DNA of 57,581 nucleotides from positions 1 to 57,581 of IMG/VR virus record IMGVR_UViG_3300013094_000056; one strand, 5' to 3'. This DNA comes from a virus (taxonomy: Duplodnaviria > Caudoviricetes). The position numbers and the translations under genes were made by a program. Position 1 is the stretch's first letter. Each line of letters opens with the position of its first letter. Of the stretch, positions 44,731 through 45,832 are shown piece by piece. Under the pieces are notes generated by a model. It was not told the DNA's origin and made no database searches. It worked only from the letters and a program-made list of their open reading frames with translations.

Positions 44731-45086
44731 TCGCCCTCCACTTTGTCGGCGCGTGCCTTTGCGTCGGCATCGGTGTAGCGGCCTTGCGGATAGCGCCGGG
44801 TCAGCTTTTCGATGTTCTTGAGCATGGTCACTTCACGGCTGATGAAGAGACCTTGGCGCAGGCCTTCAAGATAGAATTCGATATCGCCAAGCTCTTCGAT
44901 CACATTTTCGCGATCCATCGGCTTGCCGTAGATCGTTGCCTTCTTTATGGCATCGATCAGCTCTCCGACTTCACCGGCCAGACCGAGGCACATGTGAATG
45001 ATGTGTGCCGAGCGGTAATCCATGTTGCCAGAAATTTCATCTCCGGGCTTGACCAGAGCGGTCACCAGTTCTTCATGCGCTTTCAT
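44727..45086 (-). CDS. MazG-like nucleoside triphosphate pyrophosphohydrolase
   Basis: GLAGEVGEL.D..KK...EELGD..FY...N..KL..RY. Confidence 0.9.
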   Translation of the reverse strand: MKAHEELVTALVKPGDEISGNMDYRSAHIIHMCLGLAGEVGELIDAIKKATIYGKPMDRENVIEELGDIEFYLEGLRQGLFISREVTMLKNIEKLTRRYPQGRYTDADAKARADKVEGE

Positions 45087-45832
45087 GCGATGGTCCTCAT
45101 CTGATCGATCAGCTTGATGAGATCGATTTTTGAACTTTCAGGCATGCCATATTCCATGGCAAGGTGGATGATCGATTGCTCAAGCTCACCGGCTGCCCGG
45201 TCAAAGCTGCGTTCGAAAAAGAGCGATGCCCAAGGGTGCACCCGAAGCACTTCAGCCTTCATGGCGTCCATGACGTCACGATATTCGCCTTGGGTCCGCG
45301 TACTGGCTCGCTTGCGAGCGGTGTCGGCCATCGTGCGCAGGTCGAACTTTGCGACGATGTTGGTGAGGATGTTGGTCGGCAGGATGCCGCGTGCATCTTC
45401 AATCTTGGCACCATCCTCGATAAGTTGGCGATAGGTGCAGTCGATCAGAGTCATCGCATCGCTATACATTTCCCTTTTCAAGCCTTCAGAGACTGTCGGG
45501 CCGACGCCATAATCCCAGCCATCGACATCGAGCACGCGCATGGTCTGCTGAGCATACGAGCCGGTCCGAGTGCGCACGAACTGATGGGTGAAGGCGCGTG
45601 TCACACCATTGATCAGGAAGCTGTAGCTGATGAATTCCCAGCTTGAAGGTATGGTGTTGGCCATGTATTCGAGCTCTTTCATCAGGTCGTCTTCGCTCAT
45701 GGCCTGAACGTTCGCAAGCTGATTGGCGTCCATCTTCAGGCGCGTCTGCTTGGTGAACACGAGGCGTTCAGCCGCATAGCGTGCCGGGTCAGGCGATCCT
45801 GCGCCGGTGTAATCGATCAGTTCAACCTTCAC
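45083..45832 (-). CDS. thyX: Divergent flavin-dependent thymidylate synthase (ThyX-like)
   Basis: RAFTHQFVRTRTGSYAQQTMR (canonical RHRxxSxxxxSxR), EDARGILP, R....TQGEYR. Confidence 0.8.
   Translation of the reverse strand: MKVELIDYTGAGSPDPARYAAERLVFTKQTRLKMDANQLANVQAMSEDDLMKELEYMANTIPSSWEFISYSFLINGVTRAFTHQFVRTRTGSYAQQTMRVLDVDGWDYGVGPTVSEGLKREMYSDAMTLIDCTYRQLIEDGAKIEDARGILPTNILTNIVAKFDLRTMADTARKRASTRTQGEYRDVMDAMKAEVLRVHPWASLFFERSFDRAAGELEQSIIHLAMEYGMPESSKIDLIKLIDQMRTIA

Follow-up and report, generated by a model that had tools for sequence, protein, structure and literature searches.

A phage ThyX homologue with a remodelled active site and a linked flavoprotein, and its possible role in thymine hypermodification

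The ThyX locus

The virus record IMGVR_UViG_3300013094_000056 of IMG/VR (Duplodnaviria; Caudoviricetes) comprises 57,581 bases, looks complete and has a CheckV completeness estimate of 100. This whole stretch of DNA, hereafter called the window, carries on its minus strand a gene for a protein of the ThyX family, the flavin-dependent thymidylate synthases, in which several residues reported as catalytic are replaced. Directly upstream of it lies a gene for a second putative flavoprotein, which we refer to as the partner. These two genes, and their possible involvement in the hypermodification of thymine in phage DNA, are the subject of the present analysis (aa, amino acids):

45083..45832, minus strand: ThyX-family protein with a remodelled active site, 249 aa, GTG start; assigned by the Pfam Thy1 match and the fold
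45829..46770, minus strand: partner flavoprotein, 313 aa from a TTG start (311 aa in the protein collection); phrog_4828

The two genes are translationally coupled: the stop of the partner gene overlaps the start of the ThyX gene by 4 nucleotides (nt), and the chain of 4-nt overlaps extends over four genes in all, as the start of a MazG-like gene overlaps the ThyX stop and the start of a HAD phosphatase gene overlaps the MazG stop in the same manner. On the plus strand, the reading of 45083..45832 is interrupted by stops. A megablast search with positions 40000-50000 of the window gave no match in the phage collection.

Family assignment and active-site residues

The gene at 45083..45832 encodes a genuine ThyX homologue. 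Its product matches the Pfam family Thy1 (PF02511) at E 6.7e-29 with 101.5 bits (cut-off 24.8), over residues 4-201 and profile positions 1-191 of 191, and it also matches the PHROG thymidylate synthase family. The AlphaFold2 model, computed with 80 relatives as the alignment, reaches a pLDDT of 96.0 and a pTM of 0.90. All 27 PDB rows listed by Foldseek for this protein are ThyX structures, with a best E of 3.3e-11 and a TM score by target of at most 0.79; they come from Thermotoga maritima, PBCV-1, Mycobacterium tuberculosis and Thermus thermophilus. A profile built from the 80 relatives finds the M. tuberculosis ThyX among the PDB sequences at E 8e-26. The full-length Thy1 match, the ThyX fold and this profile match together place the protein in the family. 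The first-pass annotation, which had aligned the protein to ThyX by eye, proved correct in a sequence alignment to the T. maritima enzyme.

Residues were mapped through a phmmer alignment to the T. maritima ThyX chain, after subtraction of 12 extra N-terminal tag residues. The upstream motif NTIPSSWEF occupies residues 59-67 and the downstream motif RTRTGSYAQQTMRV residues 87-100, both of them as first described. The ThyX motif RHRx7S with the R-Y that follows is not satisfied, the window protein having RTRx7T in its place. At the four sites for which changes had been claimed, the alignment sets I61 against H53, T88 against H79, T97 against S88 and V100 against Y91, and it reveals two further replacements that the first description had passed over, F67 for H59 and R179 for H178. 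The protein is accordingly devoid of both the folate-stacking His (I61 at the H53 site) and the active-site Tyr (V100 at the Y91 site). The arginines said to bind flavin adenine dinucleotide (FAD) and deoxyuridine monophosphate (dUMP) are indeed all retained (R87=R78, R89=R80, R99=R90, R148=R147, R175=R174), and so are Q84 (=Q75), E66 (=E58) and R166 (=R165). Compared with the canonical enzymes of T. maritima (TM0449), M. tuberculosis and PBCV-1, the window protein therefore shares the fold, the binding arginines, E58, Q75 and R165, but differs in having I, F, T, T, V and R for H53, H59, H79, S88, Y91 and H178.

In canonical ThyX, H59 lies beside the folate, H79 and H178 contact the flavin, S88 and Y91 drive the carbinolamine/methylene step, and R174 reads the O4 of uracil. 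According to the passages of PMC11940539 that deal with the T. maritima active site, activity depends critically on Y91 and S88, which are "strictly conserved" and both lie near the flavin carbinolamine. In the same passages, Y91 mutants oxidise the flavin 1000-fold more slowly, and H53 is presented as a conserved folate-stacking His that forms a hydrogen bond with Y91 in the reduced enzyme (PMC11940539). In the window protein, both partners of this hydrogen bond are gone together. That nucleotide and flavin binding is kept while the one-carbon chemistry is remodelled, as the first-pass annotation suggested, thus appears a fair reading of the sequence, given that the fold and five arginines are kept and four sites are changed. 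The window ThyX very probably still binds dUMP and flavin, to judge by these residues.

A phage group of ThyX with the same changes

A word-indexed homologue search returned 3,765 proteins at E ≤0.001 among 4,160 candidates, and the motifs were counted in the best 120 of the 3,765, which are 63-100% identical to the query. The downstream motif reads RTR..TMRV in 119 of these and RTR..TMRI in the remaining one, while the upstream motif is NTIPSSWEF in 107 and NTIPSSWEM in 10, with three sequences that the pattern did not match. Judging from the conservation of RTR..TMRV in 119/120 homologues, the altered residues are under purifying selection. An alignment of 80 sequences shows no variation at E66, R87, R89, R148 or R175, and conservation at R99 is 90% or more.

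An exhaustive search of cluster representatives (50% identity) gave 2,260 matches at E ≤0.001, 520 at 1e-10 and 98 at 1e-30; the total of 2,260 includes canonical ThyX, and the best 150 representatives were inspected, which makes 151 aligned rows with the query. The position of H53 is taken by I in 109 rows, L in 11 and V in 11, with no H among the residues listed. At the Y91 position we find V (68 rows), T (22), I (19), A (13), L (8), F (6) and M (5), and Y is absent from the eight commonest residues, which cover 146 of the 151 rows. The H178 position holds R (115), K (10) or Q (7) and never H. More variation is seen at the H79 position (T 90, H 25, S 12, N 8) and at the S88 position (S 76, T 38, A 26). 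Since T keeps the hydroxyl and the site varies within the group, the change at S88 is a weak marker when taken alone. Both the shift from RHR to RTR and that from S to T vary among members, so that what stays constant across the group is that the H53/Y91 pair and H178 are lost. The remodelling of the active site belongs to a large ThyX group and not to one gene. Among the sequences sampled, ThyX of this group was found solely on phage or phage-like contigs, and the group appears to be restricted to phages to that extent.

The same changes are absent from the validated ThyX enzymes compared here, the T. maritima and M. tuberculosis chains and gp48 of mycobacteriophage L5 all being canonical. 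The latter, which we take to be an experimentally validated ThyX, was considered as a validated member of the group and set aside: it carries the canonical motifs GHESVFEH and RHRHLSFSVVSQRY and can scarcely be aligned to the query (BLASTP E 0.38), which makes it uninformative about the remodelled group.

These patterns bear on two alternatives to a new reaction. The first, a strong rival although we hold it to be somewhat less likely, is that the protein is an ordinary flavin-dependent thymidylate synthase of a divergent phage lineage that performs the same reaction through other residues. The full-length Thy1 match and the ThyX fold favour this view, as do the dUMP- and FAD-binding arginines and E66 (=E58), which are invariant or nearly so. 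It is also favoured by inteins that interrupt some members, inteins being typical of indispensable replication enzymes. An Ala at the S88 site in 26 of the 151 rows argues in the opposite direction. So does the joint loss of H53 and Y91 in the group rows, considering that Y91 mutants are described as 1000-fold slower (PMC11940539).

The second alternative, which seems very unlikely, is that the enzyme acts on another pyrimidine nucleotide (dCMP or UMP), or that catalysis is lost and the protein merely binds dUMP or flavin. In its favour, several putative catalytic residues are missing. A relaxed substrate choice has a parallel in the polyoxin enzyme PolB, a ThyX paralogue. According to the part of PMC5954106 that concerns its substrates, PolB methylates both UMP and dUMP. 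The equivalent of R174 (R175) is, however, retained in 132 of the 151 rows, which speaks against another substrate, and against a dead enzyme stands the strong conservation of the entire active-site loop (119/120 homologues).

The 10 longest ThyX forms consist of Thy1 with inteins (P0195, P0189), a form with a weak Pam3_gp59 match (P0145) and forms with unassigned extensions; no fusion of ThyX to the flavoprotein is found among them. The inteins that interrupt ThyX in this group lie near Thy1 profile position 71, just ahead of the THQxVRxR motif. In one relative (among P0195, P0189 and P0237), the N-terminus is extended by 347 aa, which to the eye look like a GIY-YIG homing endonuclease.

The partner flavoprotein and its linkage to ThyX

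The partner carries an N-terminal GxGxxG Rossmann motif and matches phrog_4828, a family of unknown function, at E 9.8e-51. A Pfam scan assigned it to no family, and its profile reached a best E of only 0.41 against the PDB sequences. The structural model (pLDDT 90.4) is more informative. In structural alignments with VIA-align, the best matches are UDP-galactopyranose mutases (UGMs) of the eukaryote type, led by 4dsg_B with Z 20.6 and a root-mean-square deviation of 3.6 over 296 aligned residues, followed by protoporphyrinogen oxidases (Z 18) and bacterial UGMs (Z ~16-17); identity across the matches is 12-18%. The partner resembles UGM in the overall three-domain fold, with protoporphyrinogen oxidases scoring nearly as high, and it shares the GxGxxG motif; at 311 aa it is shorter by ~55-190 residues than the UGM chains listed, which have 367-510 aa, and it is distant in sequence and outside any Pfam family. 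Its nearest clusters in the ESM Atlas are virus-only, and the nearest named clusters are of the amine-oxidase type. The model thus suggests a flavoprotein with a fold of the UDP-galactopyranose-mutase / amine-oxidase type.

The linkage of the two genes was surveyed in 80 IMG/VR loci obtained through the ThyX alignment, of which 69 have at least 1 kilobase (kb) of upstream sequence. In 69/69 of the latter, the partner gene precedes ThyX on the same strand, and in 66 it is no more than 1.5 kb away. Among the 11 loci with less than 1 kb upstream, the 3' part of the partner gene is seen at the contig end in eight, and none is seen in the other three, which have less than 130 nt of upstream sequence. 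A scan of 185,579 species genomes yielded nine loci, all of them on contigs of metagenome-assembled genomes and all with the partner (9/9); the exonuclease gene described below is present in all seven with enough downstream DNA. Taken with Vibrio phage PVA7, this gives 10/10 further loci with the partner upstream, at gaps of ~10 nt to 3.5 kb.

In cultured phages the distributions of ThyX and partner match. ThyX matches fall in 514 records, from phages of Pseudomonas (292), Gordonia (47), Mycobacterium (32), Escherichia (27), Bacillus (22), Clostridium (14), Rhizobium (10), Serratia (9), Xanthomonas (6) and others. Partner matches fall in 362 records, from phages of Pseudomonas (292), Escherichia (27), Serratia (9), Rhizobium (8), Xanthomonas (6) and further genera, of which nine that are unnamed contribute ~1 record each at most. 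The counts for the two genes are identical for Pseudomonas, Escherichia, Serratia and Xanthomonas, while Gordonia, Mycobacterium, Bacillus and Clostridium, all present in the ThyX list, are absent from the ten genera that are named with partner matches. In seven records among the matches listed for both genes, the partner lies 0.1-2.2 kb upstream of ThyX on the same strand. The window ThyX is thus tied to the upstream flavoprotein gene, unlike the canonical phage ThyX examined, that of L5, which is without it: in the 12-kb L5 locus no window protein was matched at E 1e-5.

If the enzyme were an ordinary synthase, the flavoprotein could be an unrelated conserved neighbour, or else a dedicated flavin reductase, the pair then forming a two-component thymidylate synthase. 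A reductase role finds support in eukaryote-type UGMs that were solved with NAD(P)H (5vwt, 5vwu). The strict linkage (69/69), which is lacking in the canonical L5 locus, fits less well with an ordinary synthase. A complex prediction for ThyX and partner, run without controls, gave ipSAE values of 0.01 and 0.01 and is not counted either way.

Neighbouring genes and cultured relatives

Downstream of ThyX, the block continues on the same strand with the following genes:

44727..45086, minus strand: MazG-like nucleoside-triphosphate pyrophosphohydrolase, 119 aa; Pfam MazG E 1.5e-07, phrog_229 E 4.4e-35
44287..44730, minus strand: HAD-superfamily phosphatase of the PNKP-phosphatase type, 147 aa; Pfam HAD_PNKP E 1.5e-24, phrog_415
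43330..44136, minus strand: short-chain dehydrogenase/reductase (SDR), 268 aa from a TTG start; Pfam adh_short E 7.3e-17, phrog_3142, FabG-like
42980..43330, minus strand: small protein, 116 aa; phrog_4889 E 7.5e-17 at profile positions 240-322
42441..42983, minus strand: 3'-5' exonuclease, 180 aa; Pfam RNase_T E 1.8e-14, phrog_192
39586..42444, minus strand: DnaE-type (Pol III alpha) DNA polymerase, 952 aa; DNA_pol3_alpha E 1.7e-65, phrog_405 E 1.7e-215

The constancy of these neighbours differs widely over the 80 viral loci. A homologue of the MazG-like gene occurs in just one and the SDR in 10, whereas the HAD phosphatase lies downstream of ThyX in 52, the 116-aa protein is present in 64, the exonuclease in 70 and DnaE in 64. 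The SDR has the YxxxK motif, and by eye its translation may really begin at the ATG of residue 18. The 116-aa protein is the counterpart of the C-terminal region in the HAD fusions of related phages and is 28% identical to residues 259-337 of F8 gp057; in Pfam it has only a sub-threshold match to DUF6378 (E 0.099). The exonuclease is likely the proofreading subunit of the phage polymerase, and a primase comes after the DnaE-type polymerase in the gene order. Such a nucleotide and replication module, in which a MazG-like protein and a phosphatase stand beside a polymerase, would suit an ordinary thymidylate synthase.

The Pseudomonas phage F8, a Pbunavirus, has the same block order as the window, with gp065 as the partner, gp059 as ThyX, gp057 as the HAD fusion, gp056 as the exonuclease and gp055 as DnaE; the identities to the window proteins are 32% (gp065), 38% (gp059), 26-28% (gp057), 40% (gp056) and 36% (gp055). 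The motifs of gp059 are DTIRSPFEF and RTRTGAYQQETSRA, that is, RTRx7T as in the window with no His at the H53 site and no Tyr at the Y91 site. Unlike the window, F8 has five small open reading frames (ORFs) between partner and ThyX, the HAD phosphatase is fused to the small domain, and neither MazG nor SDR is found at this place.

For this phage a sugar-like modification of thymidine has been described. The DNA of F8 resists restriction enzymes with TG in their site, and virion DNA of F8 and of phage 14-1 contains new nucleosides of 362 and 390 U, which are read as thymidine derivatives and replace about one quarter of T, in a TG motif (PMC12191111, Yee et al., 2025, preprint). As stated in the sections of the preprint drawn on here, homologue-based searches with known modification genes would miss this family, and the genes for the hypermodified thymidine of F8 are left unassigned (PMC12191111). 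The hypermodification was measured in F8 and 14-1, while the window virus is uncultured and known as a sequence record.

A second cultured carrier is the Escherichia coli myovirus Bas100 (HansTraber), in which the flavoprotein is followed by a small ORF, ThyX, the HAD fusion, a FabG-like SDR, a hypothetical ORF, the exonuclease and the polymerase. Its ThyX, with RTRTGAYQERTSRA, shares the RTRx7T signature with the window protein, and an SDR within the block is common to the two. What is known of Bas100 is a restriction phenotype: the Wifcevirus isolates Bas98-101 are reported, in the relevant part of the BASEL paper (PMC11990801), to be insensitive to all defences tested, restriction-modification systems included, without known genome protection. 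Under an ordinary synthase, the thymidine modification (PMC12191111) or restriction resistance (PMC11990801) of the carriers, as these sources describe them, would go unexplained.

The cultured relatives nearest to the window, with ThyX proteins 46-50% identical, are Vibrio phage PVA7, Cronobacter phage Ss1 and Rhizobium phage RHph_Y65. In the 207-kb RHph_Y65, a ThyX of the group lies near a dUTPase and a ribonucleotide reductase, which suits the supply of deoxythymidine monophosphate (dTMP) by an ordinary synthase. The records of the window, F8, RHph_Y65, Bas100 and PVA7 each hold exactly one ThyX-type gene (5/5). A search for the ThyA-type family PF00303 found it in 0/5 of these records, while the control search matched 10/14 reference genomes. 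The ThyX gene is thus the sole gene of thymidylate synthase type in all five records, a further point in favour of an ordinary synthase.

In the record of Vibrio phage PVA7 (PQ582223), DnaE is annotated in three pieces and the ligase, the pyrophosphatase and RadD in two each, and the flavoprotein homologue falls in two tblastn pieces. This suggests that the split genes reflect frameshift errors in the record and not biology.

A possible role in thymine hypermodification

Our preferred reading, with a probability of about 0.45, is that the window protein derives from ThyX, modifies dUMP at C5 and thereby feeds thymine modification. The enzyme would bind dUMP above the reduced flavin and build a carbon unit on C5 in a ThyX-like manner, but the reaction would not be completed as plain dTMP. 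Its product would then enter the phage DNA and serve there as the starting point of thymine hypermodification. The simplest candidate would be 5-hydroxymethyl-dUMP, which could arise if water, and not flavin hydride, captured the exocyclic methylene. The data show homology, fold, replaced residues, gene order, co-occurrence with the partner and the lack of any ThyA-type gene; from these we infer which substrate and carbon donor are used, which product is formed, how the partner takes part and that the DNA of the window phage is modified.

Several observations point to such a role. Residues reported as catalytic are lost together across the group, and the changed residues appear to be under purifying selection. 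The flavoprotein companion is present in every locus with enough upstream DNA, while the canonical phage ThyX examined (L5) is without it. Cultured carriers show an unexplained thymidine modification (F8) or restriction resistance (Wifcevirus), and a ThyA-type source of 5-hydroxymethyl-dUMP was found in none of the five records. There is also precedent for the re-purposing of an enzyme of thymidylate synthase type at the stage of the nucleotide pool. The portions of PMC13326640 on RB69 gp48 and DLP3 gp80 describe ThyA homologues that became flavin-dependent dCMP 5-hydroxylases, and a ThyA-family dUMP hydroxymethylase starts DNA hypermodification at the nucleotide pool in phages with 5-hydroxymethyluracil, as outlined in part of PMC8989533. 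The ThyA-derived enzymes share this idea with the window ThyX, while their fold and family are unrelated to it.

Other observations weigh against a modification role. A supply of dTMP fits equally well with a sole gene of thymidylate synthase type in each of the five records, and the dUTPase and ribonucleotide reductase near ThyX in RHph_Y65 point the same way. The nucleotide-binding arginines are all intact, and the S88 site keeps a hydroxyl in most members; moreover, S88 mutants of the T. maritima enzyme reportedly retain activity. About three quarters of the T in F8 is ordinary, according to the nucleoside data given in the preprint (PMC12191111), and a modification set in a TG context points to a step at the DNA level, for which ThyX chemistry on dUMP gives no explanation. 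That DnaE and the exonuclease accompany ThyX may come from the shared ancestry of a replication module and not from a common function. Finally, no glycosyltransferase, 5-hydroxymethyluracil DNA kinase or deoxynucleoside monophosphate kinase was recognised with Pfam and PHROGs in the ~60 window ORFs scanned (all but ~20 smaller ones).

A more radical scheme, which we hold to be unlikely, would have the two flavoenzymes join a sugar-derived chain directly to C5 of dUMP, independently of folate, through a flavin-N5 sugar adduct. The first-pass annotation had supposed that a different aldehyde-derived group might be transferred, or a different redox reaction carried out at C5, and the scheme gives this idea a concrete form. 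A flavin-N5 aldose adduct is the type of intermediate used by UDP-galactopyranose mutase, and dUMP would capture it in the way it captures the flavin-methylene adduct in ThyX. The product would be the polyol- or pentose-bearing thymidine of Pbunavirus DNA, made at the nucleotide pool and incorporated by DnaE. The missing folate-stacking His and the UGM-like fold of the partner are in keeping with this scheme, as is PDB entry 7ndz, by its title a ThyX reconstituted with an N5-carbinolamine flavin. The masses can also be reproduced: deoxyuridine (dU, 228.2) plus an aldopentose (150.1) minus O (16.0) gives 362.3, and dU plus a hexose (180.2) minus water (18.0) gives 390.3. However, an erythritol or pentose that is O-linked to 5-hydroxymethyl-dU fits the masses equally well (5-hydroxymethyl-dU plus erythritol minus water is again 362.3), so that the arithmetic does not separate the C-linked from the O-linked product. 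Each of the two proteins, moreover, has its own flavin site, which makes a shared intermediate a conjecture, and no sugar-activating enzyme was recognised in the window.

As for precedent in the literature, our search, judged from listings and passages, found no paper on a ThyX group of this kind, on the residues it lacks or on its association with a flavoprotein, and none that ties the group ThyX or the pair to a modification or to another function. The literature consulted assigns ThyX a single function and catalytic residues that are "strictly conserved" (PMC11940539, in its account of the active site), and here a whole branch, which includes the Pseudomonas phages most used in therapy, is without them. 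If the C5-modifying role proposed above holds and the pair makes or starts the F8-type modification, no earlier case of a ThyX-family enzyme turned to DNA hypermodification would precede it, and genes would be assigned to a thymidine-modification pathway that is still open. A sequence marker, namely the absence of His and Tyr at the two sites together with the partner, would then predict modified DNA in hundreds of phages, cultured and uncultured, which matters for escape from restriction and for selecting phages for therapy. If the enzyme instead makes plain dTMP, H53 and Y91 would be dispensable in a natural ThyX, which would matter for its mechanism and for inhibitor design.

Other observations in the window

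The composition of restriction-type sites was also examined. Palindromes of 6 bp that contain TG/CA are less avoided than the others, with a mean log observed/expected of -0.07 to -0.11 against -0.52 to -0.63; the p values at three count thresholds are 0.026, 0.088 and 0.045, and the comparison is confounded by the dominant signal, an avoidance of sites with CC/GG (p <0.001). Palindromes with AT show a similar "effect" (p ~0.02). The TG/CA pattern would fit protection in a TG context, but owing to this confounding we do not count it as evidence. Strong avoidance is seen for GC-rich palindromes, in observed against expected numbers CCCGGG (0 vs 9.8), CCGCGG (0 vs 7.9), GGCGCC (2 vs 23.5) and GGGCCC (3 vs 16.9), and AAGCTT is avoided as well (3 vs 25.1), which looks like the result of selection by host restriction systems. 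Over the whole window, the dinucleotide TA stands at 0.375 of expectation.

Some genes of the structural region deserve mention. The gene at 23688-24896 (minus strand), among the head genes, encodes 402 aa and has a NUDIX domain at the N-terminus of its product (Pfam E 5.7e-14); it adjoins a gene with a sub-threshold Pfam match to a major capsid protein (26.2 bits against a cut-off of 26.8). A NUDIX hydrolase is unusual in a structural module, and it might belong to nucleotide-pool editing. Large proteins with collagen triple-helix repeats are encoded at 1679-3295 and 30519-33287 (both minus strand; Pfam E 3.8e-52 and 9.5e-25), and the latter matches tail-fibre PHROGs yet sits between the portal and large terminase genes. 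A 483-aa protein of the tail region at 8255-9706 (minus strand) matches the FCCH domain of the ubiquitin-activating enzyme E1 (E 1.3e-12), which probably reflects a shared small beta domain.

The stretch from 48900 to 57581 forms a divergently transcribed arm with an SNF2-type helicase at 54055-55689 (phrog_62, E 1.3e-91) and several ORFs of 200-380 aa that are without a Pfam match, a PHROG match being obtained only for 56298-57449 (phrog_2510). At 20182-22884 (plus strand), an open frame of 900 aa runs over the minus-strand genes 20860-21885 (with a weak capsid match), 21919-22830 and 22859-23755; this frame, which lies in GC-rich sequence, is most probably spurious.

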